Source: an uncultured Alphaproteobacteria bacterium
GTDB taxonomy: Bacteria; Pseudomonadota; Alphaproteobacteria; Rhizobiales; Xanthobacteraceae
Direction: 5' to 3'
Assembly: GCA_963745515.1 (NCBI GenBank)
Contig: CAVUXO010000025.1
Coordinates: forward strand, 30,381 to 94,380
Length of the DNA stretch: 64,000 nucleotides
Positions 4,972-40,458 of the stretch are shown here, one piece after another. The translations under genes were made by a program, and so were the position numbers. How positions within the stretch are numbered: position 1 is the stretch's first letter; each line of letters begins with the position of its first letter. Under the pieces are notes generated by a model. It saw only the letters and a program-made list of their open reading frames with translations. It was not told where the DNA came from and ran no database searches.

Positions 4972-7263
4972 ATGAATGCCAGAGATAACGATGTTCCTCC
5001 TCTGTTGGAGGGGGGTTATCCATCAAACGCAACTCCTGCATTCAGTATTCCTGACATCTTTGCAACGTTGCGTCGAGGGTGGTATTTTCTCGCGCTTGGA
5101 TGCTTCGTCGGGCTCGCGTTGGCGATCTCCTATCTCGTATTCGCACCCACGCTGTACAAGAGCAGCGCTCGTCTTCTGATTGATCTCAGCGTAAACCGAT
5201 ATTTGCAGATTAATAAGATCGTCGACGAGCCGACTTTCCATCAGGTGGAGATTGGGAGCCAAGTCTACATCTTGTCGTCGGAAAGCGTTGTCGTTCCCGT
5301 AATTCGAGCAATGGATCTGACTCACGACAGTGAATTCGTTGGTGTGCAGAATGCGGCGGACGGCAAGATCGCCGGGCTCAAAAAGTTCATCAAAGAACTC
5401 ATCGGTTGGAATGTCGAGGGCGATGCCGGGATCGATCCGGAAGCCGCTCTCGAGCGAACAGCGGTCGAAGCCTTTCTGACTCGTCTGCAAGTTTATCGGG
5501 AGGATGCCGGCAACGTCATCAATGTGACCTTCGGGTCGTCGGATCCGAAGAAGGCGGCCAACATCGCCAATGCAGTGGCCGACACTTATATCTCCACCAC
5601 CCTGGAGGCCAAATATAAGTCAACCAAGACAATGAGCCAGTGGCTGCAGGACCGATTGAAGGATTTGAAGGAGCAAGCGATTGATGCCGATCGGGCGTTG
5701 CAGGATTACAAGATCGCCAACAATCTGGTGAGTACCGGCAAGGCTCTGGGCGCGGAAGAATTGGCGCGCCTGAACCTTCAATTGACGGATGCCCGCGTCG
5801 CGATGGCCGAGGCCAAGGCGCGGCTCGACCGCATCGAGCAGATCAGCAGCGAAGGAATATTGGCTAGCCTCGACACCGAGGTTCGAATGCGCGAGTCGCG
5901 CAAGACTGCCTCAGGATCGCTGGGCTATGCCTTGAACAATACCGATCTGGCGAGACTTCGCGCACAATACCGGGACTTGGTTGCCAGGCTCAACGAGGTG
6001 GAGTCCCGCGTAGGGCCCCAGCACGAGGTTGTCGTCAAGCTTCAGAGGAAGATGGAGGAGCTGCTCTCGGCAATCAGAGAGGAGGAGCTGCGAATAACTA
6101 ACTCCTACGCCAACGAATATGAGCTCGCGAAGGCGCGCGAGAAGCAGCTGGTGGCGAGCCTTGCCCAATTGGTCGGACAAACCGAGACCGGCAGCCAGGC
6201 TCAGGTCAAGATGCGTGAGCTCGAAAGCTCGGCTGATACGGTACGCAGCCTGTACAACAGCTTCCTGCAGAAATTCAACGAGATCAGCACGATCCAGAGT
6301 CAGAACGTCCCGGTGCAGGATGCCCGCATTGTCACGCGGGCGGCGCCGCAGCTGCAAACCAGCAAGAAGTCGGTAGCAGCGCTGGCTGGAGGTCTTATTT
6401 TCGGCCTTCTTATGGGTGCCGGAGCAGCCATGGCGCGAGAATGGGCCGCTGACGTGTTTCGGACACCCAAGAAGGTCGAGCAAGTCACCAACAAGGCCTG
6501 CGTTATCTTGCCGATGGTGCGGCCGAAGCGGGCGTCTGGGGGATTCTGGGGCAGCACCAAATCGCAGCCAATCGAAGAGTTCATTCTTGATGCACCGTAC
6601 TCGCGTTTCACGGAGTCGCTGCGTAACATTAAAGCCCTGATCGATATCGGCCCGCGTGTGGAAGGCGCCAAGGTGATCGGGATCGTGTCCTCGCTCGCCA
6701 AGGAAGGCAAGACGACGATCGCCGCAAATTTGGCGGCTCTTATGATCGCGTCATCGGGTGCCCGTACGCTGATCATCGATGCTGATCTTCATCGGCGGCT
6801 GCTGACCGCCGCATTGGCGCCCGAAGCCGATCGCGGATTGATCGAGGCGCTCGACGATCCGTCGGAGCTTGCCTCATATATCTACACACGGGAGCGCTCG
6901 GGACTGCATGTTTTGCCTTGCGCTCTCGCGACTCGCGTACCCAATGCGGCCGAACTGCTCGGCTCGGCGAAGATGGAGCAGCTGTTGGAAGTTGCGCGCA
7001 AGGCCTATGACTACATCATCATCGAGGTCGCGCCTATCATGTCGGTCGTTGACGTCAAAATGATCGAGCGCTTCATTGATAGCTTCATCTTTGTCGTGGA
7101 GTGGGGACATACCAAGCAAAGCCTCGTGCTGGAGGCGCTTTCCGAAGCGCCCAACGTGGGCGAGCGCGTCAGCGGCATCGTCCTCAACAAGGCGGCCCCC
7201 TCGGCGCTAAAGAGAATCGAAGCCTACAAAGGGGAAAGGTTCAGGAACTACTATGAAGAATGA
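4972..7263 (+). CDS. Polysaccharide co-polymerase / BY-tyrosine autokinase (ExoP/GumC/Wzc family, chain-length determinant fused to P-loop ATPase)
   Basis: Wzz-like N-terminal TM, long coiled-coil periplasmic region and a second TM (VAALAGGLIFGLLMGAGAAMA). Walker A GIVSSLAKEGKTTIAANLA, A' LIIDADLHRR, Walker B DYIIIEVAP, Tyr-containing tail AYKGERFRNYYEE. Confidence 0.9.
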   Translation: MNARDNDVPPLLEGGYPSNATPAFSIPDIFATLRRGWYFLALGCFVGLALAISYLVFAPTLYKSSARLLIDLSVNRYLQINKIVDEPTFHQVEIGSQVYILSSESVVVPVIRAMDLTHDSEFVGVQNAADGKIAGLKKFIKELIGWNVEGDAGIDPEAALERTAVEAFLTRLQVYREDAGNVINVTFGSSDPKKAANIANAVADTYISTTLEAKYKSTKTMSQWLQDRLKDLKEQAIDADRALQDYKIANNLVSTGKALGAEELARLNLQLTDARVAMAEAKARLDRIEQISSEGILASLDTEVRMRESRKTASGSLGYALNNTDLARLRAQYRDLVARLNEVESRVGPQHEVVVKLQRKMEELLSAIREEELRITNSYANEYELAKAREKQLVASLAQLVGQTETGSQAQVKMRELESSADTVRSLYNSFLQKFNEISTIQSQNVPVQDARIVTRAAPQLQTSKKSVAALAGGLIFGLLMGAGAAMAREWAADVFRTPKKVEQVTNKACVILPMVRPKRASGGFWGSTKSQPIEEFILDAPYSRFTESLRNIKALIDIGPRVEGAKVIGIVSSLAKEGKTTIAANLAALMIASSGARTLIIDADLHRRLLTAALAPEADRGLIEALDDPSELASYIYTRERSGLHVLPCALATRVPNAAELLGSAKMEQLLEVARKAYDYIIIEVAPIMSVVDVKMIERFIDSFIFVVEWGHTKQSLVLEALSEAPNVGERVSGIVLNKAAPSALKRIEAYKGERFRNYYEE

Positions 7264-7509
7264 CCGGCGCGCGCTGTGTGTCGCAGCCGACCTGAGGCCT
7301 AGGCAGCGGAACCGATTGCAGCCCCTCGCTGAGTACGGCCAGCGCCGCTCTTGAGCGAATTCGCGGGCCCGCCCACATTGTCCGACAGCAACACCATACC
7401 CGACAGCAACACCATGAATGATGAATTCAGCCGCGTGTCGGCAGCTTTGAAGATGTCTGATTCCTGAATTCAGGCGGCACACCCCACGAACGACGGAAGG
7501 CGTGTACTC

Positions 7510-8631
7510 GTGCAAGGTCAGGTTTTGCTGTTATCGCAGCGCAGGATTTCCGACCTCGTCGCGTATTGCCTCGCTTACGAATTCGAAGACGTTTTCGGGG
7601 CTGTCACGAATGCCCAGCGAATCGACACGACCGACCGGCCGGGTCTGGAGTTCTCCCGGCGCGCCTATAAGCTCGTGCGCTTGGCGTCCGGGTCGCCTCG
7701 GCTTGCGCGCCAACTGGCGCCTTATCCGCGAAGCAAGGTGATCTTGGAGCGTGACTTCGAGCTCTTCTTCCCGGTCTTCAGCCACATCTACGAGCTGTAT
7801 TCGCTCGAGACAATTCCGAACTGGCGTCAACGCTGCCGCAAGGCGGCCTGCTTCATCACCGAAGTGTGGTCGGATCTGCTACCCGATTATCTGCTCGAGC
7901 TTTTATCGAACTTTGATCATGTGTTTATTGGAACGCGTCACTGCGTCCAGGATGTGGCGCGGATGACCGGTCGACCGTGCAGCTATCTGCCGTTCGCCGT
8001 TGATGTGGTGCGCTTCGCGGCGGGATCGCTTGATCAGCCGCGCCCAATCGATGTCTGCAATATCGGTCGGCGCTCGTCGGTCACTCACCAGGCGCTGCTC
8101 GAGGATGCGCAGCGGCAACAAAGCTTTTATTATTACGACACCGTAGCCGCGACGGGCGCCGACCGTACGTTCCGCGTCGACAGCCCGCACGAGCATCGCA
8201 TGATGTTCGCGACTTTCCTCAAACATAGCCGCTACTTCATCGCCAACCGAAGCTATGTCAATAGACCGGAGTTCTCCGCGGGACGCGATGAGATCTCCGC
8301 GCGGTTCTACGAGGGCGCTGCGGCGGGGACGGTGATGATTGGAGAGGCGCCGCGCACCGAAGAGTTCAAACGCCAATTCGATTGGCCGGATGCGGTCATT
8401 CACCTGCCATTCGATTCTCCCGATGTCGCCAGTGTCCTGGCAGATCTGAATCGGCAGCCCGAACGGCTGCGGGCGGTTCAGCGCAAGAATGCCCGAGAGG
8501 CCGCGCTCAGGCACGATTGGTTGCATCGAATACAGATGGTGTGCGACGCCGTCGGACTGGCGCCGACCGAAGGAATGCAGGCTCGCGCGCGGCGGCTCGA
8601 TCAGATCGCGTCACGAGTGCTGGCAACGTAA
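7510..8631 (+). CDS. CgeB-like glycosyltransferase-family protein (Glyco_trans_1_2-type C-terminal domain)
   Basis: The C-terminal block RFYEGAAAGTVMIGEAP...LRHDWLHRIQMV resembles the CgeB/DUF3880-type GT1-like fold. 373-aa ORF with coding-type composition. Confidence 0.55.
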   Translation: MQGQVLLLSQRRISDLVAYCLAYEFEDVFGAVTNAQRIDTTDRPGLEFSRRAYKLVRLASGSPRLARQLAPYPRSKVILERDFELFFPVFSHIYELYSLETIPNWRQRCRKAACFITEVWSDLLPDYLLELLSNFDHVFIGTRHCVQDVARMTGRPCSYLPFAVDVVRFAAGSLDQPRPIDVCNIGRRSSVTHQALLEDAQRQQSFYYYDTVAATGADRTFRVDSPHEHRMMFATFLKHSRYFIANRSYVNRPEFSAGRDEISARFYEGAAAGTVMIGEAPRTEEFKRQFDWPDAVIHLPFDSPDVASVLADLNRQPERLRAVQRKNAREAALRHDWLHRIQMVCDAVGLAPTEGMQARARRLDQIASRVLAT

Positions 8632-8800
8632 TTTAATTTTCGTGGAGCCGCAGAAGCAAGCCGACCTGCAAACCACCCAAGAGACGCCTGACTCCTCAGG
8701 CGCTTAAACCAAATCAAAATCGGGTCAACTCAAATCAACGACTGGAAAGCGCCACGTTGGGGCGATTCCCTCCAGTCCCTGTACGAGAGAGGGGCCTGCC

Positions 8801-10021
8801 TCACGGTCCCGTAGAACCCGGCACGAGAATTGCCCCTCCGATGCCTTGGGCTGTGTTTTTCAACAGATAGACACTCGTTGCGGCGTCGACCGGGTCCTTC
8901 GCGGTCGAGATGATCAGCTTCAGATAGGTGAGGAACTTCGATGCATCGACGGTCGGCGCATTGGAGATGTAGAGGACATCCTTGTTCCTGACCTCGAACT
9001 TGGTGGCCAGGAAAAAGCCCGCCGGATCGCGGAGATTGATATTGTAGATGATCGGGATGATCGGGCCCGTGAACGGGGTGCAATCGACGCCGAGTGCCAT
9101 TGCGACTTCGCGAGTCTCGCCCCGGTAAAGGAAGACCGCGCCGGGATCGGCTTGCGTGTCGGCGAGGCCGGCGGCCTTTGCGGCTGCTTCGGCGAGCGAG
9201 ATTCGCCAGGCATCAAACGCGAACTGGCCCTGCCGACCGGTGGCGCCAAAAGCGACGAAGGTCAGGGGATCCTTATAGATAAAGATCGTGTCCTGGGCGC
9301 GCACGTAGATATTGTTTGACGGCTCATAGATGAGCGCTCCGAACGGTACCGTTTCCCGGCGTCCGCCACGCTCCAGCATGACCCAAAGATCATGCCCGGG
9401 GGCTCTAAGCCCTGCGCGCGTAATCGCATCGAGAACTCGCTCTCCGCTCGCGCTCGCGGGGAAGCGTATCGATCCGACCGATTTGCCAAGTACGTTGATC
9501 GATGAGGCGCGTTGGTCTGCCCAGGACACAATAGCCTGCGGCTCCAATGCTCGATCCTTCAGCGCAGCAACAATGTTGTTCTGAATCTCGGCTGCGGTTT
9601 TGCCCTTAGCCCGGATCGCTCCTGCATAGGGAACGAAGATGTTGCCCTTGTTGTCAACGGATTGGGGTGGAAGGGTGACGAAATTGCCCGCGCGCGCGCC
9701 TGCTTCCGCAGGGATAAAGAGACCGCCCGAGGCGGACTCGTACAGGGTGATGGTGACGACATCTCCGATGCCAAACCGGAGTTCGTCGGGCCCGCGCCTG
9801 TCTTTGAACGTCGTAGAAAATCTTGGGGTATTGCGGCCGAGCACTTCCAGAACAGCCGGCGTCACGCGCACGAAGGCATAAGGAAGGCTCTCGGCATCCC
9901 GCTGGCCTTGCCGAACGTCTGTGCTCTGCGGGCCTGATGTCGGCACAAGGGTAGCGCAGCCACCCAACGCAACGGCTGCGCCGAGAACAATAAGGCCTGC
10001 GAGGACTCGAAATTCGTGCAC
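8801..10021 (-). CDS. Outer-membrane polysaccharide export lipoprotein (Wza/GumB/ExoF family; Poly_export + two SLBB domains)
   Basis: Lipobox LGGCA. Motifs GIGDVVTITLYE, PPQSVDNKGNIFVPYAGAIRAKGKTAAEI, NVLGKSVGSIRFP, ERVLDAITRAGL. Confidence 0.85.
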   Translation of the reverse strand: MHEFRVLAGLIVLGAAVALGGCATLVPTSGPQSTDVRQGQRDAESLPYAFVRVTPAVLEVLGRNTPRFSTTFKDRRGPDELRFGIGDVVTITLYESASGGLFIPAEAGARAGNFVTLPPQSVDNKGNIFVPYAGAIRAKGKTAAEIQNNIVAALKDRALEPQAIVSWADQRASSINVLGKSVGSIRFPASASGERVLDAITRAGLRAPGHDLWVMLERGGRRETVPFGALIYEPSNNIYVRAQDTIFIYKDPLTFVAFGATGRQGQFAFDAWRISLAEAAAKAAGLADTQADPGAVFLYRGETREVAMALGVDCTPFTGPIIPIIYNINLRDPAGFFLATKFEVRNKDVLYISNAPTVDASKFLTYLKLIISTAKDPVDAATSVYLLKNTAQGIGGAILVPGSTGP

Positions 10022-10641
10022 TCAACCCACTCCGTGCTTATGTTCAATTAACCACGCAAGCAGGTGAGCGATAAGATCCTCGATGCGCTCTGACTGTTAA
10101 TTTCTTCCGATTTTTCAATGGTGTTGCCAGTGTGCCACAGGTTGGACATAGATGTGGTGAGATTTAGTCAATGGCCTGATTCTTAACGTTTTCTCAACCC
10201 TCCGCAGACACCACACCTAGGTGCCCTGTTGATACCGACGACTAGTCCGAGAATAAGCTGACAGAGAGGTAATTGGATGGGGCCGATCGTGCAGTCGGGG
10301 TGCTGCACGAGCCAGCGGAAGGGCTGGGCTCGTTGAGTGCCACGCGCGCCGTCAGGTGAACGAAGGCCGTCACGGCATTATGGATTGTTGCTTGCCGAGA
10401 TAGCGATCGATCCCCGAAGGGCTCGCTGACCGTTATCGTTGGGATGCAGCCAGAAAATTTGCTTACTGAATTTACCCTATTGTCTAATTGTCGATATTGT
10501 GCAGCAAGTTACGCGCAGTTTTGTGCGATATCTTCCAGACGAAGAAGCGGGGGCTTTCCAAACACCCTTGACTGACCGGCAAGGAGCGTCCGCGGAGGGG
10601 TTCCCACCACGAATTTGCGCGGACCACAACTCGCGTTATCC

Positions 10642-12798
10642 ATGCAGACCAAGACGCGCAAGTTTCTTAGATGGCTACGCCACCTGACGATCTTGATCTT
10701 CGTCGGGGGCGTGCTCATTGCGGCGCTGGGTGCGGCGGTGCTGTTCTGGCGGCCGAGCTATTTGTCCGGCGTCGTCGATGCAGAAGCGCCGTCAGCAGAG
10801 AGGATTTGGCACGGCGTCACGTGTCGGGCAGGTTTGTTCCTGCAGAAGGCCAAGGGAGACATCCCCGATCTGAGCTGGACCGAGCTTTGGGCGTTGTTGC
10901 GACCTGCGCTTGGATACCACTGTATGGATGGAGTCAGCCTGGAGGCTGGTTTCCAATTCAGCTCAGTCGCAAGCGACGAGGACCGCAAGGAGGGCGCGCG
11001 CATATTCGGCGAACGGTGCGGGGCATGCCACGGCAGTAATGGTTCAGGCGGCCCCCACGCGCCCTCATTGACTCGCCCGGCTTATAACCATGGCGATAGC
11101 GACCTCACCATCTACAAGCTGCTGAGGGACGGTATTCCCGGTACGTCGATGCCGAGCGCCGGCCTTCCGCTTCGGCAACTCCTGCAGGTGACTGCCTATG
11201 TGAAAATGCTGCAGGCGAATGCGCAGGATGTTCAGCGCGCCGAAACTCCGCGCGTTGCAGTTCAGGTGAACAGCGAGCGCCTGAAAGCTGCCGGAACCAA
11301 GCCAGACGAATGGCTGATGTATTCTGGCTCTTATAACGGCTGGCGTCACGCACCGCTCACACAGATCACGCCTGAAAACGTCGCGTCGTTGCGTACCCGG
11401 TGGGTAAGGCAGTTCGACAGCAACGATCCTTTCATTGAAGCCACACCGCTGGTGATAGGCGGGGTGATCTTCATGGTTGCGCCAGCGTCAACTGTCGCGG
11501 CCTTGGATGCCAAGACCGGCGAGGTGATCTGGGAATACAAGCGGGCTATTTCGCCTGAGTTGCCACTGTGCTGCGGACGCAACAACCGCGGTCTAGCGGT
11601 CTATGAGCATACGCTATTCCAGGGCACGCTCGATGGCTATCTGGTTGCGCTCGATGCGAGCGACGGGAAGCTTGTCTGGCAGACACAGGTTGCGAAGTCT
11701 TCCGAGGGATACTCGATTACGGGGGCGCCGCTTGTCGTCAATGGCCTGGTGGTGATCGGGATCGCGGGTGGAGAATATGGCACCCGCGGCTTTCTGGCGG
11801 CCTTTGATGCGTCGACGGGGCAACAGCAATGGAAATTTTCCACGATTCCCGGTCCCGGCGAAGTCGGCCACGAGACGTGGCTGAACGATGCCTGGCGGAC
11901 GGGCGGTGGTCCGACCTGGAATACGGGCAGCTACGACGCCGAGAGCGATTTGCTCTATTGGGGCGTCGGAAATCCCAGCCCGCTCTACTCTGGCGATGTG
12001 CGACCAGGAGACAACCTCTTTACCGATAGTGTGATTGCTTTGCATGCCAAAACGGGAAAGCTGGCATGGCATTTTCAATTCACACCCCACGACGAGCACG
12101 ACTGGGATTCGACACAGACACCGGTTCTCGCCGACCTTTCGGTCAACGGCGTAGTTCGCAAGGTGATCTGCTGGCCTAATAGGAATGGATTCTACTATGT
12201 CCTCGATCGGATCTCCGGAGAGTTCTTGGCCGGCGTGCCGTTCGTCGAGATCGATTGGGCGAGCGGCCTCACTGCCGCAGGACGGCCGATCTTGACCGAT
12301 ATCGGCAGGGTATCGGGGAGCGGGCGCAGGGTTAAGCCAGGCGCTGATGGTGGCACCAACTGGCAAAATCCGGCCTTCGACCCAAACCGGAAGTTGATAT
12401 TCGTCCCCGCGTCCGAAAGCAGCTCAGTCTATACAAAGTCTCCTCCCAACAGAGTGGTGCGCAGGCAGGGCGGGCTCTATTTCGGTAGCGGCTGGAGTCA
12501 ACCAGAGGCTCCGATTCGTGTAATTCGCGCGCTCAATGCCGCAACCGGACTGCGACAGTGGGAGTACTTTCCATCGACGTCGAAGCGTGAATACGGTGGT
12601 TTGCTCTCGACGCAGGGTGGGCTGGTGTTCGGGACGTCGGGCGGAGTTTTCTTTGCTTTGGATGCCGACTCTGGTCGTGAAGTTTGGCGCCTTCCACTTG
12701 GTGGGAATACAATGGCCGCTCCGATCTCTTTTGCTCTCGATGGGCAACAGTTGATCGCCGTGGCTGCTGGAAAGGCGCTATTCGTGTTCGGGTTGTAG
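10642..12798 (+). CDS. Membrane-anchored quinohemoprotein: N-terminal TM helix + c-type cytochrome domain + PQQ-dependent dehydrogenase beta-propeller
   Basis: TM helix LTILIFVGGVLIAALGAAVLFW. Haem c motif CGACHG. PQQ-ADH/MDH family blocks: vicinal Cys LPLCCGRNNRG, GGEYGTRGFLAAFDASTGQQQWKF, GGGPTWNTGSYDAESDLLYWGVGNPSP, SVIALHAKTGKLAWHFQFTPHDEHDWD. Confidence 0.85.
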   Translation: MQTKTRKFLRWLRHLTILIFVGGVLIAALGAAVLFWRPSYLSGVVDAEAPSAERIWHGVTCRAGLFLQKAKGDIPDLSWTELWALLRPALGYHCMDGVSLEAGFQFSSVASDEDRKEGARIFGERCGACHGSNGSGGPHAPSLTRPAYNHGDSDLTIYKLLRDGIPGTSMPSAGLPLRQLLQVTAYVKMLQANAQDVQRAETPRVAVQVNSERLKAAGTKPDEWLMYSGSYNGWRHAPLTQITPENVASLRTRWVRQFDSNDPFIEATPLVIGGVIFMVAPASTVAALDAKTGEVIWEYKRAISPELPLCCGRNNRGLAVYEHTLFQGTLDGYLVALDASDGKLVWQTQVAKSSEGYSITGAPLVVNGLVVIGIAGGEYGTRGFLAAFDASTGQQQWKFSTIPGPGEVGHETWLNDAWRTGGGPTWNTGSYDAESDLLYWGVGNPSPLYSGDVRPGDNLFTDSVIALHAKTGKLAWHFQFTPHDEHDWDSTQTPVLADLSVNGVVRKVICWPNRNGFYYVLDRISGEFLAGVPFVEIDWASGLTAAGRPILTDIGRVSGSGRRVKPGADGGTNWQNPAFDPNRKLIFVPASESSSVYTKSPPNRVVRRQGGLYFGSGWSQPEAPIRVIRALNAATGLRQWEYFPSTSKREYGGLLSTQGGLVFGTSGGVFFALDADSGREVWRLPLGGNTMAAPISFALDGQQLIAVAAGKALFVFGL

Positions 12799-12903
12799 GC
12801 GATGTGTGTCATTTCTGCAGGGCGGTCCCTTGTCGGTGCGACGTCACTTAGCGGTAATGATCTGCAAGAAGTATGGTGCCACTAATGCTGTGTGGGTTGG
12901 CCA

Positions 12904-13857
12904 ATGCCGTCAATTGATCGTGCGGGTCTCTTTGCGCCCCGGCCATTGATCTACACATTGGTTGTTCTTGTGGCTGTTCTCGCAGGCCTCACGTACCAGG
13001 TCCGCTCTCGAACCATCTTTGCCTGCAAGGCCGATGGTTACAACGCTGATCAATATATCGCTTATTGTAACGCTTCCGGTTACGCCGACTACGAGCACGG
13101 CGCCTTCTGGTTCGACTTGGAACCTGCGGCCAAGGATTTTGCCAGGAAGGCAGACGTCGTGTTTCTCGGCAACAGCCGCATGCAGGTCGCGCTCTCTGCT
13201 GAGGCGACGGGCAACTGGTTCTCGGCCATTTCGGCCCGATACTACCTGTTGGGCTTCAGCTACGGTGAAAATGTGGTCATGACAGAGGAGCTTCTGCGCA
13301 AGCTCCAGCCCAGGGCCAAAGTCTACGTGATCAACGTGGACGATTTTTTTGAAAGAATTGAAACGGCGCCGATGAAAACGATCTTGCACGAGGCTGACGC
13401 CCGAGATCGATATGAGACGAAGCGTCGCTGGCAGCACATCCATGAGCGGATTTGCACAAAGCTGTCAGCACTATGCAGAAGTGACTACGTCATCTTCCGT
13501 TCCCGCGAGACCGGTGCGTATACGAAGAAGACGGACAGAGATCAGATAACCCCAGTCTCTGATGATTGGGTTGTCGACCAGAATCTCGTCAAGAGCAGCA
13601 CGTCCGTCGCAAAAGATTTCTTGGCGAAACTGACTGTTCCGCGAGAATGCGTGATCCTGACGATGGTCCCCACGGTCGGAACAAGAATTGGAAATGTGAC
13701 TGCTATTGCGGAGGCGCTCGGTGTCCCTTTGATGACGCCTGAGCTTTCGCAGGACCTTCTGACGTTTGACGGATCTCACTTGGACAAGGCGAGCGCTGAA
13801 CGTTGGTCTCAGGCCTTTTTTCAGATGGCCAGCTCCAAAATTCGATCATGCCTTTAG
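12904..13857 (+). CDS. N-terminally anchored SGNH/DltD/AlgX-like putative extracytoplasmic acyltransferase
   Basis: Single N-terminal TM (LIYTLVVLVAVLAGL). Candidate SGNH block I VVFLGNSRMQ and block V FDGSHLD (D-x-x-H). Lies directly upstream of FkbH-ACP and next to an MBOAT gene. Alternative GTG start at 12892. Confidence 0.5.
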   Translation: MPSIDRAGLFAPRPLIYTLVVLVAVLAGLTYQVRSRTIFACKADGYNADQYIAYCNASGYADYEHGAFWFDLEPAAKDFARKADVVFLGNSRMQVALSAEATGNWFSAISARYYLLGFSYGENVVMTEELLRKLQPRAKVYVINVDDFFERIETAPMKTILHEADARDRYETKRRWQHIHERICTKLSALCRSDYVIFRSRETGAYTKKTDRDQITPVSDDWVVDQNLVKSSTSVAKDFLAKLTVPRECVILTMVPTVGTRIGNVTAIAEALGVPLMTPELSQDLLTFDGSHLDKASAERWSQAFFQMASSKIRSCL

Positions 13858-13918
13858 GCACGGTGTATCGGTCGGATGATCTCATCAAGCCACATGTTCC
13901 GCGTTACGGTAGGTCCTG

Positions 13919-15845
13919 ATGCAAAACGCCACGCCTAGCGTCCCTGGAATGAGCTGGCTGCCGACGGCGCCCGATTTCCGCGCCAGGTTGCGCGCCGCCC
14001 TGGATACTGCCAATCCGGGGGATCGCCTGCAAAACTTCGTTTCCCTGGCAGGCTGTCATCTTGGATTCCTGGAAACGATCCAGCTTGATCGTGCATGTGC
14101 GCAATTGGCGTTGAAGGAAGCTCCCGGCTTTGCACCGGTTCGGCTGGCTGTTCTAGCTTCTTCGACCGTCGATCATCTGTTGCCCGCGATCCGGGTCGCC
14201 GGCCTCCGTCGACGACTGTTGATCGACGCCTATTGCGGTGCGTACGGTCAATATCGACAAGATCTTCTCGATCCGGCCTCCTCCCTTCAGAAATTTGCTC
14301 CGCAGACCGTCTTGTTCTCGTTGACCGCCCGGGAGGCGTTTGCCGGTCTCCCACTGACAGCGTCCGCCGCAGACGTTGAGGCAGCCGTCATGAGGTTCAT
14401 CGACGACTTGCGTTTCCTTTGGCGAAAGGCGCGGGACAGCTTTAATTCCTCGATCATTCAACAAACCTTTATGGACGTGACGGAGCCATTGTTTGGCAGC
14501 TACGATCGCTTCGTTCCAGGAGTGCCGTTCCGGGTCGTGGCACGGCTTAACGACCGGCTTGAAGAGGCCGCCGCGCAGGACGGAGTGCTGCTCCTCGATG
14601 TGGCTCGCGCCAGCGAGCGTGACGGAATCGACGCATGGTTTGACACGGGGCGTTGGCTGCAAGGAAAGTTGGAAATCGCTCCCCAAGCTGCTCCCAAGTA
14701 TGGCGATCTTCTCGCTCGTATCCTGGCGGCCCAGCGCGGCCTTTCAAAGAAGTGCCTCGTGCTTGACCTGGACAACACTCTTTGGGGTGGCGTGATCGGC
14801 GACGACGGAATGGAGGGGATTGTCCTCGGCGAAGGAAGCGCAGTTGGCGAAGCACACTTGGCCTTGCAGCATTACGCCAAACAGCTCACGCAGCGTGGGA
14901 TCATTCTCGCCGTATGCTCCAAGAACGACACCAGGGTCGCGGAGGAGGTGTTCGACAAACATCCCGAAATGGTTCTGAGTTCGATCCGACATCGCCGCGT
15001 TCGTGGCAAATTGGAATGATAAGGCGGAAAACCTCAAGACCATTGCCACGCGGCTGAACATCGGCATTGATAGCTTGGTCTTTGTTGATGACAACCCGGT
15101 GGAACGGGCTCGCATCCGCGAGAGCCTGCCGATGATCGCAGTGCCAGAGCTTCCCGAGGATGCGGCGCAATATGTGCGCTGCCTCGCCGATGCGGGCTAT
15201 TTTGAAGCGGTTGCATTTACGTCAGAGGATCAGCAGCGCGCGCAGCAATATGCCTCTAATGCTGAACGCGATGCGCTGCTCGAGTCTGCGCAAAGCATGG
15301 ATGACTTCCTGCGCGGGCTCAGAATGTCGGTTGTTTCCGGGCCATTCACCGCCGTCGATCACGTCCGCATTGTTCAATTGATCAACAAGACAAATCAATT
15401 CAATACGACCACCCGGCGATACACATCCGAAGAAATAACTGAGTTGACCAACCAACCCAGCGCTCTAACATTGCAATTCCGACTGCTGGATCGAATTGGC
15501 GACAATGGTCTCGTCAGTACTATGATCATGCGACCCACATCCGACCGGGAAGACGTGCTCGAGATTGAGAATTGGGTGATGAGTTGCCGTGTATTCGGAC
15601 GGCAGCTGGAGTTCGAAGCTATGAATATCGCGGCTGAAGCTGCTCGCCAGCGTGGCGTAAGGGCGATCATAGCCGATTACATTGCCACCTCTAAGAACGA
15701 CGTGATCAGTTCGCTCTATCCGAGTCTCGGCTTCTCAGAACTCGACAATGCGGGATCCAACACGGGGGCGCAGCGCTGGTTCCTTAACCTTGAAAATTAT
15801 GTGATGCGCGACACCCATATCGCTAGCGCTGGAGCAGCCGGATGA
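13919..15845 (+). pseudogene. FkbH-like HAD-IIIC loading enzyme (glyceryl-ACP synthase family), one frameshift
   Basis: ORFs 13919..15019 and 15003..15845 join into one FkbH-type protein. HAD motif LVLDLDNTLWGG, then KHPEMVL | DIAAFVANWNDKAENLKTIA...FVDDNPVERA. Frame switch near 14978. C-terminal GNAT-like domain. Confidence 0.8.
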
Positions 15846-16087
15846 GCGCTGAAGAAATCCTGACCGCGCTGACGCGGATCCTTCGCGATCTGTTGCTCAA
15901 CGACTCTATCGTGCTGACGATGGAAACCCGGCGTGAAGACGTGCCCGGCTGGGATTCGTTCAACTACATCAACTTCATCGTCGCGGTTGAGCTTGAGTTT
16001 GGCGTGAAGTTCAAGGTGGCTGACATTGAGTCTTTTGCGAACGTTGGTGCAATTGTGACAGAAATAATGAAAAAGCGCGGCCGGTGA
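15842..16087 (+). CDS. Acyl carrier protein
   Basis: 81 aa, acidic. Phosphopantetheine-site-like GWDSFNYINF. The start overlaps the FkbH stop (ATGA), implying translational coupling. Confidence 0.85.
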   Translation: MSAEEILTALTRILRDLLLNDSIVLTMETRREDVPGWDSFNYINFIVAVELEFGVKFKVADIESFANVGAIVTEIMKKRGR

Positions 16088-16220
16088 TTGATTGGTCCAG
16101 CTCATTCGATCGATCGGGGTTGATCGACGCCATTGCGGATCAATCGATCAATCCCAATCAGTTCGTATCGTAGAAGGCTTGGCAAGAGTGTGAGCGGCGC
16201 CGCTTGGCGCTGCTTTCCAC

Positions 16221-17839
16221 CTAGAACTGCCAGTACAAGAACTCACTTGGCCCACCTAGCGACCCGATTGCGATCGCCGCAATAATCGAAACTGCAATGG
16301 CCCAAGGAAGCGAAGCGTTCCATCGGGTCAATTCACCAATTGCGCTCTCAGGTTTCTTTGGCTTTACACCGAGTGCGGGCTCGTAGCGGTCCAGGATTTG
16401 AAGGGTGTTCGGGCAGGCGAGGGCGATGAACATCAGGAGTGCAATCCAAAATCCTGTCCTCATGAAGATGCGGACGGTCATTGGATCTGACATCACTCCG
16501 ATGGAGCGCAACGCGCTGGCTACACGCCCTGGGCCCTCAAGAAGGGCCTCCGGAATCGCGATGCCGTTCAGGCCGGCCATGCCCTTGATCAGGTCCATGG
16601 CTGTCGTCAGCGTTGGAGATCGGAAGAAAACCATCGCAACTGCAACACACGCAAAGGTGAGTGCTACGCTTGCGTAGGTTGAAAGCGAGCTGCTCGTCCT
16701 GCCGGGCCATAGGCGCGCTTTGATCAAGCGCCAGCCATGATTGACCGTGAGATAGAAGCCGTGCAGTAAGCCCCAAACAATGAAGCCATATCCGGCACCA
16801 TGCCAAATTCCGGAGATGAGCATTGTCATGGTCGTCGGAAACATCAAGAGAGAAATGAAAGCTCCAACGGTTGTCGTGCGACCTCCGAATGCTGTCTTGC
16901 CCTTTGTCAATCGACGTCTCGTGAGCCACAGCACCAAGGGATTGTAGAGATATCCAGTCAGGAACCGCGTCAGTGTCATGTGCCAGCGCAGCCAGAAGTC
17001 GACAATGTTTGAGGCGCGAAGAGGCAAGTCGAAGTTCTGTGGTAGACGAATTCCGAAGAATCGAGCCAAGCCAAGGGCCATATCGGAATAGCCGGAAAAG
17101 TCGAAGTAGATCTGCAACGTGAATCCGATGGCGGCCATCCAAGCCATCAGAAATGAGGTTCCGTTTCCGGCCTGCTCATAAAGCGGGGTAACAAGCAGGG
17201 CGATGTTGTCGGCAAGGACGACCTTTTTGAACAGACCAAATGACAGCAGCGTCAGGCCGACAGTCAGGTTCTCCTTGTCAAAACGACAAGGCGCCGCCTG
17301 AAATTGCGGCATCATCTCCCGATAGTGAACGATTGGACCTGCGATCAGCTGAGGAAAGAACAGAACAAAGATACAATAGTCTTCGAATCGAAATGATTTT
17401 ACTCGTCCGGCCTGCACATCTATCAGGAATGCGATCTTTTGAAACGTAATAAAGGAAATTCCTAGAGGCAGGATGATGTGCGTCAGCACAAGGTTCGCAG
17501 CAAACACATCATTGATCGTGCTATACAGGAAATCCAAATACTTAAAGTATCCTAGAAATGCGATATTGAACAAAATTCCCAGCACAAGCAGGACCTGAGA
17601 TGCACGAGGCGAGGTGCCGCTCTCGTTCAATCTCAGAAGCTTGCGCGCCAATACGTAGTTGATGACGATCGAGGGGGCTATGATCAACACGTTGATCGGC
17701 CGCCACCAAGCGTAAAATGCTAGCGAAACGAGAATAAGCCAAAAGATCGCGGCCCTGCGAGAGGTGGGGCCAAGCAGATAGAATACGACTAGAGTGACCG
17801 GCAGAATCCCAACAGGAATTCATTCGAATTGAACAGCAT
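16221..17839 (-). pseudogene. MBOAT family O-acyltransferase (AlgI/DltB-like), N-terminal frameshift
   Basis: 489-aa ORF with about 10 TM helices and MBOAT-typical blocks (FFPQLIAGPIVHY, DFSGYSDMALGLARFFG, FWLRWHMTL, IWHGAGYGFIVWGLLHG). The true N-terminus MLFNSNEFLLGF (ATG at 17839) is in another frame; a 1-nt deletion near 17815 joins it to LPVTLVVFYLL. Confidence 0.85.
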
Positions 17840-18000
17840 TGCTAAGTCTCGGTGAGGCCTTCAAGGATCTGGACGGCGCGTTACTGGGCTAGATTCGTCA
17901 AATAGTATTGCGGCTTAGCTCTCTGCCGAGCATCCCGGTGCTCGCACTATCGCAACGTAGAAGACATGCGTCGCGGGCGTCAAGTTTTGCGACTGCCGCG

Positions 18001-18039
18001 GATGCAAGTCATTAATGCAAGCCATCGATGCAAGCCATT
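18001..18039 (+). repeat. Three tandem 13-nt direct repeats (gATGCAAGyCATy) in the intergenic region upstream of the wzy-like gene
   Basis: gatgcaagtcatt / aatgcaagccatc / gatgcaagccatt occupy 18001-18013, 18014-18026 and 18027-18039. Confidence 0.7.
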
Positions 18040-18618
18040 GCGCAGGCAGGAGGAGCATGGAAAAGCATCACCTGGATGCCAACCAATCATCGGTGCAACT
18101 ATTGGCGTTTAACACTAACGGCAGGAATTTCGCCACGTTTCTTTCGCCCAAAAAGCGTGCCGCCCGGGAGCTGCTGCCTGGGGCTGAGGGTCCGAATGCG
18201 GCGGGAGCGAAAATCAGACGAATGTCTTGGCTAATCGCGCAGGAGTATCTACGACATTCGGACCGTCCGGGGACCGGAGGGGAGGCTATCCTTGCCGGCC
18301 CGACAGGCGATTCAGCCTTTTAAGCGCCAATCAGTCTTCTTAAACGCCAAAACTTCGAAGCGTGGAACCGTTGGCCTCGCCGGATTTTCGATCTTCGCTC
18401 GCCGAGAGCGGGGGTGTGCCGGCCCCTGCTGCATTTGTGGGTCCGTTATTGGGCGAGTTGCGAAACCAGCGGGATTAACCTTCGCGATCATCGCTTAGCG
18501 ACGCGCCACGTTTGCGTGATCGCAAATTGCGGGCTAGTGTTGTAATATTTCTAGCCCTTCTGACCCATGATATTGAGTGCAGGGCGACACTCGCAGCGAA
18601 CAGCAATAAAGGACGAGA

Positions 18619-19983
18619 ATGTCCAAAGCCTCAATGCCTGTTTCCGGGTTGGGTCAGGATAGATCGTCCAGGTCGAAATTTGACGCATGTACGATCTTGC
18701 CGATCTTGGCATGTCTTTTTGCCACCGTCGTGGCTCCCGTGATTCTTTTCGCTACTGTGCCTGTGACCAGTACGCTGCAGACCATAATGGAGAGCCGATG
18801 GGATACCAGAATTTTCTGGCCTCTGGTGGCTGCGATCTCCCTCATTTTGGTCGTATGGCATCTTGACCGCCTCCGTAAATTGACATGGCCTCCCCATATC
18901 ATCTGCCTTTTCGTCTATCTGGCGTTTGCCGGCCTAAGCGTCGGGTGGGCTTTCAAGCCCGAGCTCTCACTTATCAGGTACCTGCAACAAGTGATGGTTC
19001 AGGCCGCCATTATTCTTCCGGCCATGCTCGCGGTTCGAAGATCGGATATGATGTATGGCGTTTTTTTGTGCTACGCTTTGGGCGCGATCCTGAATGTTTT
19101 TTTCGTGCTTAATAACGACCCGGCCCGGGTATACCTTTTGAATGGTTATCCGGGATATTTCATGGGCAAGAATTATTTGGGAGAATTTGCAGCGGTCGTT
19201 TTCATACTGGCGCTGCACGAGGCTGTCCATCGAGGATTTCGGCGAGTATTCGGCATCATCGTTGTGATGATCGCCGTTTGGCTTCTCGTCATGGCCAATT
19301 CCAAGACAGCGCTCGGTCTGGCATTTGTTGTTCCATGCTTGGCTGGAATTTTTCTCGTTGTTGCCAGGACGACGCGTATCTCACCGGCAGTCCTTATAAT
19401 GTCCATACCGGTTTGCTACGCCATTCTGGCCAGCATAACCGGGTTCAATATGAACCGCTTGTCGTACATGCTGTATGGCGACCCGACGTTCACGGGTCGT
19501 ACAATCATTTGGGATTTCGCAAACTATGAGATTTCACGCAGACCGCTTTTTGGCTGGGGATACCAATCGTTTTGGCTGGTAGGACCCGACGCGCCCAGCA
19601 TCGTTGACGCTCCAGGCTTTGTTAAGGCCATGCCGAACGCCCATAACGGCTACAAGGATACGATGCTGGAGCTGGGGTACGTTGGCCTTGCTTTGCTCTT
19701 GACCTTTATCACCGCAACCCTCCACGCGATTGGGCGCGTCGCAAAGCGCGACCTCACTCGGGCGTGGCTTTTGCTCTCGCTTGCTCTGTACGTCATCATT
19801 TACAACTTCCTGGAAAGCCTCTGGATGCGAGGCTTCGAAGTCTTGTGGGTGTTGTTTTTGATCGTCGCAGTCGAAGCCGCGCGATACTGGCAGCCTTCTC
19901 CTTCGGTTAAGGCATCGTATGGATCGAGGGCCCCAAGCCCGGGGAATCGGGCACCCGCACGAGGCGCGCTGAGGCCCAGGTGA
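18619..19983 (+). CDS. O-antigen ligase / Wzy-type polysaccharide polymerase family membrane protein
   Basis: About 10-12 TM helices. Wzy_C-type loop with NAHNGYKDTMLELGYVGLALLL. Confidence 0.8.
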   Translation: MSKASMPVSGLGQDRSSRSKFDACTILPILACLFATVVAPVILFATVPVTSTLQTIMESRWDTRIFWPLVAAISLILVVWHLDRLRKLTWPPHIICLFVYLAFAGLSVGWAFKPELSLIRYLQQVMVQAAIILPAMLAVRRSDMMYGVFLCYALGAILNVFFVLNNDPARVYLLNGYPGYFMGKNYLGEFAAVVFILALHEAVHRGFRRVFGIIVVMIAVWLLVMANSKTALGLAFVVPCLAGIFLVVARTTRISPAVLIMSIPVCYAILASITGFNMNRLSYMLYGDPTFTGRTIIWDFANYEISRRPLFGWGYQSFWLVGPDAPSIVDAPGFVKAMPNAHNGYKDTMLELGYVGLALLLTFITATLHAIGRVAKRDLTRAWLLLSLALYVIIYNFLESLWMRGFEVLWVLFLIVAVEAARYWQPSPSVKASYGSRAPSPGNRAPARGALRPR

Positions 19984-20347
19984 CAACAATGAAGAAGATC
20001 GATTGAAGGGCGGAGTTCTGGCCTTCGAAGTCTCTAGGGCGAACTTGTAATTTATGCGTGCCGCGTGCCGTTTGGTGCTCATGCCATAGGTGGAACTCCA
20101 CGGCTTACATTGGTTCATGCTCCGCCGCTGCGAGATGAGAGAAGATCGTTGGAGATTGTTCATGCATGGTGTCAACAGGCGCGTCATTTCGATCACAGGC
20201 CGGGCCACTGAGGCTCCGACTTCGTCCTCTCGCTTGTTGGTGTTCAAAGTCAAACCGGACTTTGCCGGCGAGAGCAACGAGGCCCGTGGCACAGCGATAT
20301 TCCCGTCGTGTGAGCGTTTCTCGGCTCGCGGAGGGTGCCAAGCACTC

Positions 20348-36692: not shown

Positions 36693-36962
36693 TTATCTCC
36701 GCCACTCGCGAGTTACTGACCTGCAAACTGCACAGTGAAAGTCTATACTGCCTATATTACGCTCTGATAATAGTCGACGTTAACTGATTTGTTCAAATTA
36801 GATTAATTAACTGTCGTATCATGCGATAACACGCGCCGAACCCGCCGTCTAAGCCGCTGGTGGAATTTAGATCAGCCAGTTCCCAGCGGCAAATCGGCGG
36901 ACTACAAGTCGCGGTGTGGATGTCCGGGCCGATTGCGCGTCGGCAATGCACGAGGTTGGAAG
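36693..36962. promoter_or_regulatory. AT-rich divergent promoter region between the toroid-protein operon (-) and the ACP/LuxCE operon (+)
   Basis: The most AT-rich stretch seen in the window (e.g. tatactgcctatattacgctctgataatagtcgacgttaactgatttgttcaaattagattaattaact), flanked by divergently oriented genes. Confidence 0.35.
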
Positions 36963-37202
36963 ATGGATCTTGAGGAAAGAGTACTGAAGATTTTCAAGCA
37001 GGAACTTGAGATCAATGGCGACGTGGACACGAGTTCTTTGAGGTATAATGAAACCCCCAACTGGGGGTCATTGGCTCACATATCAATGGTATCGGCGCTC
37101 GAGGGCGAATTCGATATCATGCTTGAGCCAGACGATATTCTTGCGATGAGCAGCTTCGACAAAGCCGTCAGCATCGTTCGAAAAGCTTCCAATGCTGGTT
37201 GA
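36963..37202 (+). CDS. Acyl/peptidyl carrier protein (phosphopantetheine-binding)
   Basis: 79 aa, acidic, four-helix-type pattern. Candidate attachment Ser in NWGSLAHISMVSALE. Its stop overlaps the start of the next gene. Confidence 0.7.
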   Translation: MDLEERVLKIFKQELEINGDVDTSSLRYNETPNWGSLAHISMVSALEGEFDIMLEPDDILAMSSFDKAVSIVRKASNAG

Positions 37203-37944
37203 TCTTTCCGACAGGGTTGCAATCGTTACGGGCTCGGCGCGGGGTATCGGTCTTGCGACCGCCAAACGCCTCGCCCTCGCGGGCGCACACGTCGTGATCA
37301 ATTCGCGGCAGGACGATGCGCACTTGGCTGAGGCGGCTGAGTTGCTCCGGGCCGGCGCAAAGTCACAGATATTGCCGATTGCCGCTGATGTCGGAACGGC
37401 TCAAGGTGCCGCATCGCTTGTCAAAGCCACTTTCGACACGTTTCGCCGGATCGATGTTCTCGTCAACAACGCGGGGATTCTAAAGGAAGCGCCGATTGGA
37501 ATGATCGGAAGCGATGATATCAAGTCGTTGATCGATGCCAACCTGGGCAGCGTGCTCAACATGACCCAGGCGGTCAGCAGGGTGATGGCCCGGCGCAAAG
37601 CGGGTGCTATCGTCAATTTGACATCGATTATGGGGCGTCGCGGACGTGCCGGGCAATTCGTCTATAGCGCGACGAAAGCCGGAGTGATCGGTGCCACTTT
37701 GGCGGCTGCGAAGGAATTGTCCAAGTCGGGAATTCGCGTCAACGCCGTTGCGCCCGGCTATATTGAGACAAGCATGACCCAGCATGTTACGGAGTCCCAA
37801 AAAGCAGCATTGATGAGCAACATCCCCGCGGGACGAGCTGGAACGCCCGATGATGTAGCCGCCGCGATCTGTTTCCTGGTCTCAGATTTTGCGCAGTACA
37901 TCACCGGCCAAGTTCTCGGGGTCGATGGTGGAATGATTGCGTGA
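37192..37944 (+). CDS. SDR family 3-oxoacyl-[ACP] reductase (FabG-like)
   Basis: VAIVTGSARGIGLATA (TGxxxGIG), NNAG, catalytic S...YSATKAG, PGYIET. Confidence 0.9.
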   Translation: MLVDLSDRVAIVTGSARGIGLATAKRLALAGAHVVINSRQDDAHLAEAAELLRAGAKSQILPIAADVGTAQGAASLVKATFDTFRRIDVLVNNAGILKEAPIGMIGSDDIKSLIDANLGSVLNMTQAVSRVMARRKAGAIVNLTSIMGRRGRAGQFVYSATKAGVIGATLAAAKELSKSGIRVNAVAPGYIETSMTQHVTESQKAALMSNIPAGRAGTPDDVAAAICFLVSDFAQYITGQVLGVDGGMIA

Positions 37945-39386: not shown

Positions 39387-40450
39387 TTTTCGAGGAGCTC
39401 GTTTCACGACCGGCATTCACGGTCCCTGATCATGAGAAAGAGCCACTCCTGCTGCGTGGCCTGGCGGAGCTGACGCGTCACCATCATGGCAGTTGCGTTG
39501 GGTATCGGAACATCCTTGAGGCCGCATATGCAGGTCGTCAGTCCTTTGAACGCATAGACGAAATTCCCTACTTGCCGGCTGCGCTGTTCAAGAGGATCGA
39601 GCTGTCGTCGACAGCGAAGCCGACCCTCACCCTGCAGTCCAGCGGAACGACAGGTCAACAACCGAGCAGGATTGTCGTGGACGCCGAGACCTCCGAGCGA
39701 CAATCTCGAGGTCTCCTTTCGGTATTCCGTCCGGTGTTGGGCGCCCATCGTCTGCCGCTGCTTGTCATCGATACTCGCAAGGTCATCACGGACCCCCGGA
39801 TGCTAACGGCGCGCGGCGCGGGCGTGCTGGGAATGATGAAGTTCGGAGCCAAGGCCACTTTCGCACTGGATCCGGACTTGAACGTTATCGAAGCGGACGT
39901 GTTGAGCTTCGTCGAAAGGCATGGGAAACAGCCGTTCTTGATTTTTGGCTTCACGTTTCTCGTATGGCTGAAGTTGTTCAAGACCTTTGAGCATCGTGGA
40001 CTCGATCTCTCGAACGCCATCATCATACATTCGGGTGGCTGGAAGAAGATGGAGGAGATGCGTGTCTCCAACAATGCGTTTCGAGAGCAGTTCAATGCCA
40101 GGTTCGGCATCCGCCACATCCACAATTTCTATGGCTTCGTCGAGCAGCTCGGCTCGATTTTCGTCGAAGCCGATGATGGACTTCTCTACGCGCCCAACTA
40201 CGCGGACGTCATCGTTCGCGATCCCGCCACCCTGCAGCCCCTGCCTGTAGGCGAAACCGGCTTGCTGCAAGTGGTGTCTCTGCTCCCCAAATCTTATCCC
40301 GGCCATTCAATCTTGACCGAGGACCTCGGAATTGTCGAGCGCGTCGACAATGCCTCGATCGGACGCATGGGCAAGGGAATCCGCGTCCTGGGACGGCTGC
40401 CAGCCTCGGAGCTCCGGGGATGCAGCGACGTCATAGCGGCGGCGGCCTAG
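39383..40450 (+). CDS. LuxE-family acyl-protein synthetase
   Basis: Aligns by eye with Vibrio LuxE blocks: IDEIPYLPAALFKR (IDDIPVFPTSVFK), QSSGTTGQ (TSSGTNG), IIHSGGWKK (IITGGGWKS), VRDPATLQPLPVGETGLLQ (ALDPETLKPVPDGTPGLM), C-terminal RGCSD (KGCA). Confidence 0.75.
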   Translation: MIFEELVSRPAFTVPDHEKEPLLLRGLAELTRHHHGSCVGYRNILEAAYAGRQSFERIDEIPYLPAALFKRIELSSTAKPTLTLQSSGTTGQQPSRIVVDAETSERQSRGLLSVFRPVLGAHRLPLLVIDTRKVITDPRMLTARGAGVLGMMKFGAKATFALDPDLNVIEADVLSFVERHGKQPFLIFGFTFLVWLKLFKTFEHRGLDLSNAIIIHSGGWKKMEEMRVSNNAFREQFNARFGIRHIHNFYGFVEQLGSIFVEADDGLLYAPNYADVIVRDPATLQPLPVGETGLLQVVSLLPKSYPGHSILTEDLGIVERVDNASIGRMGKGIRVLGRLPASELRGCSDVIAAAA

Positions 40451-40458
40451 AGGCGCCC

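Follow-up and report, generated by a model that had tools for sequence, protein, structure and literature searches.

In the Dlt pathway, which D-alanylates teichoic acids, a cytoplasmic adenylating ligase (DltA) charges a small phosphopantetheinyl carrier protein (DltC), the MBOAT protein DltB and the microprotein DltX act at the membrane, and DltD, an N-terminally anchored extracytoplasmic Ser-His-Asp protein, is the final transferase. DltX carries the acyl-shuttle motif FxYxxF, whose tyrosine, in DltX as in PatA, takes up the acyl group and hands it on to the SGNH partner's catalytic serine (PMC12148441). In PatA, AlgI and other bacterial MBOATs this motif is fused to the MBOAT itself on two extra helices, and the MBOAT/SGNH pathways other than Dlt are stated to use acyl-CoA, without a carrier protein (PMC12148441). 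FkbH enzymes of the OzmB type convert 1,3-bisphosphoglycerate, by way of an enzyme thioester, into glyceryl-S-acyl carrier protein (PMC9057759), and glyceric-acid units in natural products are accompanied by FkbH domains (PMC6520454). In glycan modification, FkbH has its closest precedent in the uncharacterised cj1302 of the Campylobacter jejuni flagellar glycosylation island (PMC7099621). Here we analyse a cassette of four genes, encoding an FkbH-family loader, an acyl carrier protein (ACP), an MBOAT and an anchored SGNH-like protein that we call orfX, in a 64,000-nucleotide (nt) stretch of an uncultured Xanthobacteraceae genome (contig CAVUXO010000025.1, positions 30,381–94,380; hereafter the window). 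No description of an FkbH–carrier protein–MBOAT–SGNH module was found in the literature searched.

The cassette is a hybrid, with a Dlt-like donor side (loader and carrier protein) and a PatA-like membrane and periplasmic side (fused shuttle and SGNH partner). From the observed gene identities, motifs, predicted fold and synteny, we infer its chemistry and acceptor: it is probably a carrier-protein-fed MBOAT–SGNH O-acylation module within a Wzx/Wzy-type exopolysaccharide locus. The four open reading frames (ORFs) on which the sequence-only reading of this DNA had based a similar proposal are all present (Table 1), as are the motifs it had picked out (DLDNTLWGG, NWNDKAENL, GWDSF, FLGNSRMQ and DGSH). 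That reading had equated the cassette with Dlt component for component. The equation holds for a cytoplasmic loader that charges a small phosphopantetheinyl carrier protein, for a DltB-homologous MBOAT with an FxYxxF tyrosine shuttle and for an N-terminally anchored extracytoplasmic Ser-His-Asp protein as predicted final transferase. It fails for DltX, since no separate microprotein is found in the cassette and the motif stands at the MBOAT's C-terminus instead, and for DltD, to whose family the final transferase does not belong. The cassette also differs from Dlt in its loader, which is of the FkbH/HAD type rather than an adenylating ligase, in its predicted acyl group, glyceroyl or lactyl rather than D-alanyl, and in its Gram-negative hosts and exopolysaccharide context. 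No AMP-binding protein, such as a DltA-type ligase, is encoded in the cassette; the sole such gene of the window, at 37941–39386, belongs to a separate module. With PatA/PatB, AlgI/AlgJ/AlgX and WssH/WssI the cassette shares an MBOAT whose additional C-terminal helices end in FxYxxF, a periplasmic partner of SGNH type as a separate protein and an envelope polymer of Gram-negative bacteria as the setting. Those systems have neither a carrier protein nor a dedicated loader and use acetyl-CoA, whereas the cassette has both, and its SGNH partner is remotely DUF1574-like at most and is none of AlgX, PatB/DUF459 or DHHW.

Table 1. Features of the cassette and its upstream flank in the window. Residues of orfX are numbered from GTG 12892 (subtract 4 for numbering from ATG 12904), and their conservation was measured over 100 diverse family members.
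Feature	Position	Strand	Remarks
Pyrroloquinoline quinone (PQQ)-type alcohol dehydrogenase homologue with membrane-anchored cytochrome c, possible accessory gene	10615–12798	+	105 nt upstream of 12904
orfX, predicted membrane-anchored periplasmic SGNH-like acyltransferase partner	12904–13857	+	ORF open from GTG 12892 (321 codons); 317 aa from ATG
orfX G93			Conserved 100%
orfX S95, predicted nucleophile	13174–13176		Conserved 100%
orfX G121			Conserved 89%
orfX N148			Conserved 85%
orfX D293			Conserved 98%
orfX H296	13777–13779		Conserved 100%
orfX six cysteines			Conserved 95–100%
FkbH-family loader	13919–15845	+	641 aa after repair; split into 13919–15019 and 15003–15845
FkbH Asp283/Asp285 in DLDNT	14765–14773		HAD aspartates
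FkbH Cys333 in CSKND, Cys556 in MSCRVFG			Both at least 95% conserved
Acyl carrier protein	15842–16087	+	81 aa; start overlaps FkbH stop
Carrier-protein Ser39 in GWDSF	15956–15958		Predicted phosphopantetheine site
MBOAT membrane acyltransferase	16221–17839	-	539 aa after repair; main ORF 16221–17690 plus upstream piece to 17839
MBOAT C-terminal hexapeptide FLYWQF (FxYxxF acyl-shuttle motif; Tyr536)	16224–16241	-	Very end of MBOAT

The split ORF downstream of orfX is a true FkbH-family protein, in agreement with its earlier description as an FkbH-like HAD-IIIC loader. Its second fragment alone scores 212 bits against TIGR01686 (cut-off 146.65), the first matches the HAD-IIIC model TIGR01681 and FkbH_N (PF21211), and the repaired protein matches BF1531 of Bacteroides fragilis (PDB 3SLR; residues 71–435, E = 3.6e-68). 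It is built of an FkbH_N domain, a HAD-IIIC domain and an FkbH C-terminal domain. Among 39 cassette orthologues, conservation is 95% or higher for the HAD motifs DLDNTLWGG, CSKND, ANWxDK and FVDDNP and for the C-terminal motifs NKTNQFN and WVMSCRVFGR, and a check of the catalytic residues found the HAD aspartates and both conserved cysteines in place. The FkbH stop and the carrier-protein start share an ATGA, as had been proposed, and a carrier-protein gene immediately downstream is a feature in common with the FkbH/OzmB loaders of polyketide and tetronate pathways, as are TIGR01686 membership with its HAD motifs and conserved cysteines and the optional dehydratase/reductase tailoring of the carrier-bound unit. 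The cassette differs from those pathways in that its product goes, by inference, to a membrane acyltransferase and not to a polyketide synthase or nonribosomal peptide synthetase, in that its loader adds an FkbH_N domain, as in BF1531, and in that the tailoring enzyme of its relatives is a free-standing fusion of a MaoC dehydratase and a short-chain dehydrogenase/reductase (SDR). Residues ~75–260 of the loader (window 13919–14730, PF21211) weakly match the GDSL/SGNH family PF13472 (E = 7e-4), and judging from this alignment an SGNH-like module may be part of the loader itself. The 81-aa protein is an acyl carrier protein with a generic ACP fold, not specifically of the DltC family: it has a weak PF00550 match, hits several NCBIfam ACP models and aligns with the putative ACP 2LML (6.4e-14), including the D-S attachment motif.

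The fourth gene encodes an MBOAT related to AlgI and DltB, as the sequence-only reading had it, and lies on the minus strand, which that reading did not mention, convergent with the carrier-protein gene. The protein matches PF03062 (E = 4e-23), the DltB model TIGR04091 (1.4e-54) and the solved DltB structures 8JEM and 6BUG (3e-33). Its score of 185.8 bits against TIGR04091 lies below the equivalog cut-off of 375, which makes it a homologue of DltB and not an equivalog. The histidine motifs RWH and WHG are conserved, and the stretches RWHMTL and IWHGAG that hold them align with DltB. The protein exceeds DltB by ~100 residues and its C-terminus reads ...EFLYWQF; in essentially all complete MBOATs of the 67 related loci described below, the final six residues fit FLY[WF]x[F]. 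The cassette thus has the parts of an MBOAT–SGNH pair: the MBOAT catalytic histidine, a C-terminal FxYxxF and an adjacent partner with a predicted SGNH fold and a predicted Ser/Asp/His set. The inverted MBOAT, in place of the ancestral colinear order, is seen in the window, in its closest relatives (L001, L002 and L071) and in L031; in L071 a transposase fragment (8560–8802) lies just past the inverted gene (6193–7812, minus strand).

The anchored protein is the least familiar member of the cassette. ATG 12904 is its likely start because close relatives are called at 317 aa. The 12904 ORF matches no Pfam or NCBIfam model, and its family has 1531 matches in the 90% database, falling into 778 clusters at 50% identity. 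The earlier assignment of SGNH-like blocks I and V agrees with the conserved signature (Table 1), the predicted strands and weak structural matches, and a membership in the DltD or AlgX families was not borne out. The AlphaFold (AF2) model of the whole protein has a confidence (pLDDT) of 86.8 and that of residues 41–321 one of 96.7, with an N-terminal helix at residues 17–40 as transmembrane anchor. The conserved blocks follow directly after the predicted strands 89–93, 117–121 and 144–148 and stand ahead of the last helix, which places them where SGNH blocks I, II, III and V are found. The flavodoxin-like α/β fold with blocks after successive strands that defines SGNH clan CL0264 is present in the model, with modest statistical support. 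In both Foldseek searches of orfX against the PDB the top matches were SGNH proteins at E values of 0.01–0.03, among them platelet-activating factor acetylhydrolase (probability 0.93–0.96, TM-score about 0.5), the periplasmic SGNH domain of OafA, the lipopolysaccharide (LPS) acetyltransferase from Salmonella, a Bacteroides lipase and Est24; PatB came at rank 31 and DltD (6PFX) at rank 34 with E = 0.34. DltD (PF04914) was therefore rejected as an identity for orfX, given also that no Pfam match was found and that DltD is outside the 25 commonest families when 100 members are searched at E ≤ 1. The orfX-family profile retrieved nothing relevant among PDB sequences. The closest sequence family is DUF1574 (PF07611), an SGNH-clan CL0264 family of unknown function (PMC9487903), which likewise consists of ~300-aa proteins and is weakly matched over the block I–II region by 11 of 100 members and 3 of 10 distant members (best E = 1.7e-4); the best score, 21.5 bits, is below the Pfam cut-off of 29.1, so that none passes. 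On the evidence of its signature and model, orfX is a predicted membrane-anchored SGNH-like protein; the six conserved cysteines imply a periplasmic location, and it is probably disulfide-bonded there. Its family is new, not covered by any current model, and is not AlgX, PatB/DUF459 or DHHW.

Some further arrangements of this family were seen. Two orfX paralogues stand beside one cassette in L019 (8650–9702 and 9956–10966) and in L041 (6863–7942 and 11255–12325). A 707-aa metagenomic protein (P0254) was considered as a link between orfX and MBOAT and discarded, its N-terminus being an unrelated repeat region with no Pfam match: the 390 N-terminal residues consist of an unannotated segment present twice, with a hydrophobic stretch behind each copy, and the orfX domain is C-terminal. 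Another candidate fusion (P0169), of an orfX fragment and a formyltransferase, looks like a gene-calling artefact or fragment.

The conservation of the cassette was followed in a scan of one genome per species, seeded by the closer orfX alignment, which gave 67 loci with an orfX relative; their six-frame ORFs were searched with the window proteins, and the neighbourhood was taken as 8 kb around orfX. The full set of FkbH, carrier protein and MBOAT stands near orfX in 41 loci. Two more have FkbH and the carrier protein with no MBOAT counted (in L041 it lies past 8 kb; in L048 the carrier protein was scored under another label), six have the carrier protein and MBOAT without FkbH, 12 have the MBOAT only, and the remaining six are mostly truncated by contig ends. 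FkbH and the carrier protein thus accompany orfX in 43 of the 67 loci, 41 of them with the MBOAT, and the order is nearly always orfX–FkbH–ACP–(MaoC–SDR)–MBOAT on one strand. FkbH-bearing loci occur in Alphaproteobacteria (Methylocella, Bradyrhizobium, Roseiarcus), Betaproteobacteria (Burkholderiales), Gammaproteobacteria (Steroidobacteraceae), Nitrospira and Acidobacteria. The recurrence of the same gene set in dozens of distantly related genomes is more than chance would give, and this synteny across five lineages places the FkbH and carrier-protein genes between the two members of an MBOAT–SGNH pair; apart from the MaoC–SDR fusion, the cassette leaves no gene-sized gap for another acyltransferase. 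The MBOAT-only loci hold the most distant orfX relatives (~32% identity), including those of cultured Bradyrhizobium and Microvirga strains. Since an MBOAT lies near orfX in every locus with enough flanking DNA, and since bare MBOAT–orfX pairs exist, orfX is an MBOAT partner in general, and the version with carrier protein and FkbH is a large coherent sub-branch of its family. The three computational refutation tests that the sequence-only reading had set for its interpretation, directed at the fold of orfX, the catalytic residues of FkbH and the co-conservation of the four genes, all failed to do so, and that interpretation is supported.

The genes around the cassette encode a Wzc-like kinase, Wza, a Wzy-like polymerase/ligase, a β-helix protein, an initiating sugar transferase, WecG-, GT1- and GT2-type transferases and a UDP-GlcNAc 2-epimerase. 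This is a Wzx/Wzy-type exopolysaccharide locus in which the cassette is embedded, and from this position the simplest acceptor is the exopolysaccharide of the locus itself. Promoter and terminator sites predicted in a scan of 10000–18700 were no commoner than in shuffled sequence, and the scan yielded no operon boundaries. A second acyl-handling gene set lies on the plus strand of the same polysaccharide locus, at 36933–42151. It comprises a carrier-protein-like small ORF (36933–37202), a FabG-like SDR, an AMP-binding enzyme, a LuxE-like acyl-protein synthetase, a LuxC-like reductase, whose gene is broken by an in-frame TGA (41014–41016), and a stand-alone MaoC dehydratase.

In about half of the loci with FkbH and carrier protein the set is enlarged by a MaoC–SDR fusion, by a PQQ quinohemoprotein or by the two together. 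The 485-aa fusion occurs in 27 loci, usually between the carrier-protein gene and the MBOAT (e.g., L035, 13202–14659, plus strand), and is absent beside the cassette of the window. In work on the starter units of FR901464 and bryostatin, a hotdog dehydratase and a ketoreductase are reported to turn glyceryl-ACP into pyruvoyl-ACP and then lactyl-ACP. The MaoC–SDR fusion probably tailors the carrier-bound unit, for example from glyceryl through pyruvoyl to lactyl, and read in this way it speaks for a glycerate-derived unit on the carrier. The PQQ quinohemoprotein upstream of orfX had been noted as co-oriented and about 105 nt away, which is accurate (Table 1). It matches PF01011, PF13442 and TIGR03075, and the type II quinohemoprotein alcohol dehydrogenase 1KV9 at 3e-98. 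A PQQ alcohol dehydrogenase–cytochrome c homologue is encoded within 8 kb in 29 of the 67 loci, including 27 of the 49 of the carrier-protein type, on the same strand when upstream and on the opposite strand when downstream (e.g., L035, 16369–18480, minus strand). This association suggests that the PQQ protein is functionally linked with the acylation module; that it oxidises the installed hydroxyacyl group or the polymer in the periplasm is possible but speculative.

A three-stage mechanism can be proposed for the probable O-acylation module. In the loading stage, modelled on the characterised members of its family, FkbH would take a glycolytic acyl phosphate (1,3-bisphosphoglycerate in those enzymes) in the cytoplasm, form an enzyme thioester, remove the phosphate and load the glyceryl group onto the carrier protein (81 aa, co-translated) at its phosphopantetheine arm. 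For the crossing of the membrane, the terminal motif and the precedents of Dlt and PatA suggest that the acyl-carrier protein would dock on the cytoplasmic face of the MBOAT, whose histidine would move the acyl group to Tyr536 of its own C-terminal FLYWQF at the periplasmic face. In the delivery stage, which follows from the signature, the fold and the obligate pairing, Ser95 of orfX would accept the acyl group with the help of the Asp293/His296 dyad, and orfX would then esterify a hydroxyl on the polysaccharide that the surrounding locus produces. Where relatives have the MaoC–SDR fusion, dehydration and reduction of the glyceryl-carrier protein would probably precede transfer and yield pyruvoyl, then lactyl; for the window, whose cassette lacks a neighbour of this kind, glyceroyl is the predicted ester.

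Several points weigh against this reading. FkbH and the MBOAT are both frameshifted in this sequence, so that the module may be inactive here. The inversion of the MBOAT uncouples it transcriptionally from the rest of the cassette, and its PatA-type architecture leaves acetyl-CoA as a possible donor, against which the encoded carrier protein and loader argue. Relative to OzmB (366 aa), the loader carries an additional N-terminal domain. For orfX, the SGNH proteins retrieved by structure are weak matches (best E = 0.011, TM-score ~0.5), with sequence profiles below significance. FkbH is missing within 8 kb in six of the 49 carrier-protein-type loci (L012, L013, L021, L022, L031 and L055), and no alternative loader was found within ~10 kb in L022 and L055, which were followed gene by gene. 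Loci of this kind indicate that the carrier protein can be loaded otherwise or from elsewhere in the genome.

The alternative that survives best, although we regard it as unlikely, is that two functions share one operon, with the MBOAT and orfX forming an acetyl-CoA-dependent O-acetyltransferase, like PatA/PatB or AlgI/AlgJ, while FkbH and the carrier protein feed another cytoplasmic acyl transfer, for example onto a nucleotide sugar. The sequence-only reading had considered the donor for AlgI-type O-acylation generally unsettled, which is partly out of date, as PatA has been shown to use acetyl-CoA (PMC12148441), and the MBOAT of the cassette has just this PatA/AlgI-type architecture with a fused FxYxxF. 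The 12 loci in which distant orfX relatives pair with an MBOAT alone, without a carrier protein, are also in keeping with a shared operon, as are the FkbH–carrier pairs found in glycan contexts without an MBOAT, namely that of L008, beside an AT3 acyltransferase and a PIG-L deacetylase, and cj1302 in the C. jejuni flagellar glycosylation island (PMC7099621). However, in more than 40 genomes the FkbH and carrier-protein genes are tightly spaced between orfX and the MBOAT, and the cassette has no other acyltransferase candidate left for the loaded carrier protein. Moreover, the MBOAT and orfX proteins of carrier-type loci form a distinct group, scoring 590–870 bits against 265–413 for the carrier-free ones, which fits co-adaptation.

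The L008 pair deserves a description of its own. In this Bradyrhizobium metagenome-assembled genome, a second FkbH paralogue with its own carrier protein is found besides the cassette (15311–20246, minus strand), in an operon with a PIG-L-type de-N-acetylase, an AT3-family acyltransferase and an uncharacterised protein of 318 aa. AT3, the other major family of membrane acyltransferases, may thus likewise be supplied by FkbH–carrier protein loaders.

Next in order, and unlikely too, is the possibility that the same machinery serves another acceptor, such as LPS, peptidoglycan, a periplasmic glucan or a lipid, or that the FkbH-like enzyme loads an acyl group other than glycerate. The acceptor is proposed from genomic context, and lineages may differ in the final group, as the patchy occurrence of MaoC–SDR and PQQ genes suggests. 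Against this possibility speak the conservation of all FkbH catalytic motifs and the position of the cassette inside polysaccharide loci, adjoining Wzy, a β-helix protein and glycosyltransferases, in the window, L022 and L055.

The frameshifts, one in each of the FkbH and MBOAT genes as had been pointed out, were located by comparison with relatives. FkbH contains one extra T at 14980/14981 (GAGTTCG against GAG-TCG in L001, a metagenome contig 99.8% identical to the window with an intact FkbH), and the MBOAT lacks one base at ~17804 (coding strand TTC-TG against TTCCTG in L071). The contig L071, 86% identical and arranged in the same way with its MBOAT inverted, encodes intact proteins of 641 aa (FkbH) and 539 aa (MBOAT), the lengths that the repaired proteins of the window also have. 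Both single-base indels are absent from close relatives and fall in two-base runs, with no other decay in the frames, and a consensus error is for this reason more likely than real decay. That the locus is a decaying remnant in this genome, with FkbH and the MBOAT genuine pseudogenes and nothing acylated, is improbable, since against the two frameshifts in 5 kb and the in-frame TGA in the second acyl module stand these comparisons and the similar split genes of several related metagenome-assembled genomes, which are typical of long-read consensus errors.

More tentatively, the cassette may represent a widespread and so far unrecognised class of envelope-polymer acylation, in which a dedicated carrier protein, and not acyl-CoA, supplies an MBOAT of the PatA/AlgI type that has the tyrosine shuttle fused to it, and non-acetyl hydroxyacyl esters are installed on exopolysaccharides, glyceroyl in the basic form and lactyl where the MaoC–SDR fusion is present, and in which the linked PQQ/cytochrome c dehydrogenase might oxidise the group or the polymer. 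The cassette would contradict the generalisation that Dlt alone uses a carrier protein and the other pathways acyl-CoA (PMC12148441). If it works as proposed, the donor side of MBOAT–SGNH machines would be modular, and it offers a tractable case for how an MBOAT tells a carrier protein from coenzyme A. It predicts glyceroyl and lactyl esters of polysaccharides, which are rare or unknown, and names candidate genes for them in abundant soil lineages, among them Beijerinckiaceae-like and Bradyrhizobium-like Alphaproteobacteria, Burkholderiales, Steroidobacteraceae, Nitrospira and Acidobacteria. It also gives the ~780 unannotated sequence clusters of the orfX family a testable role.

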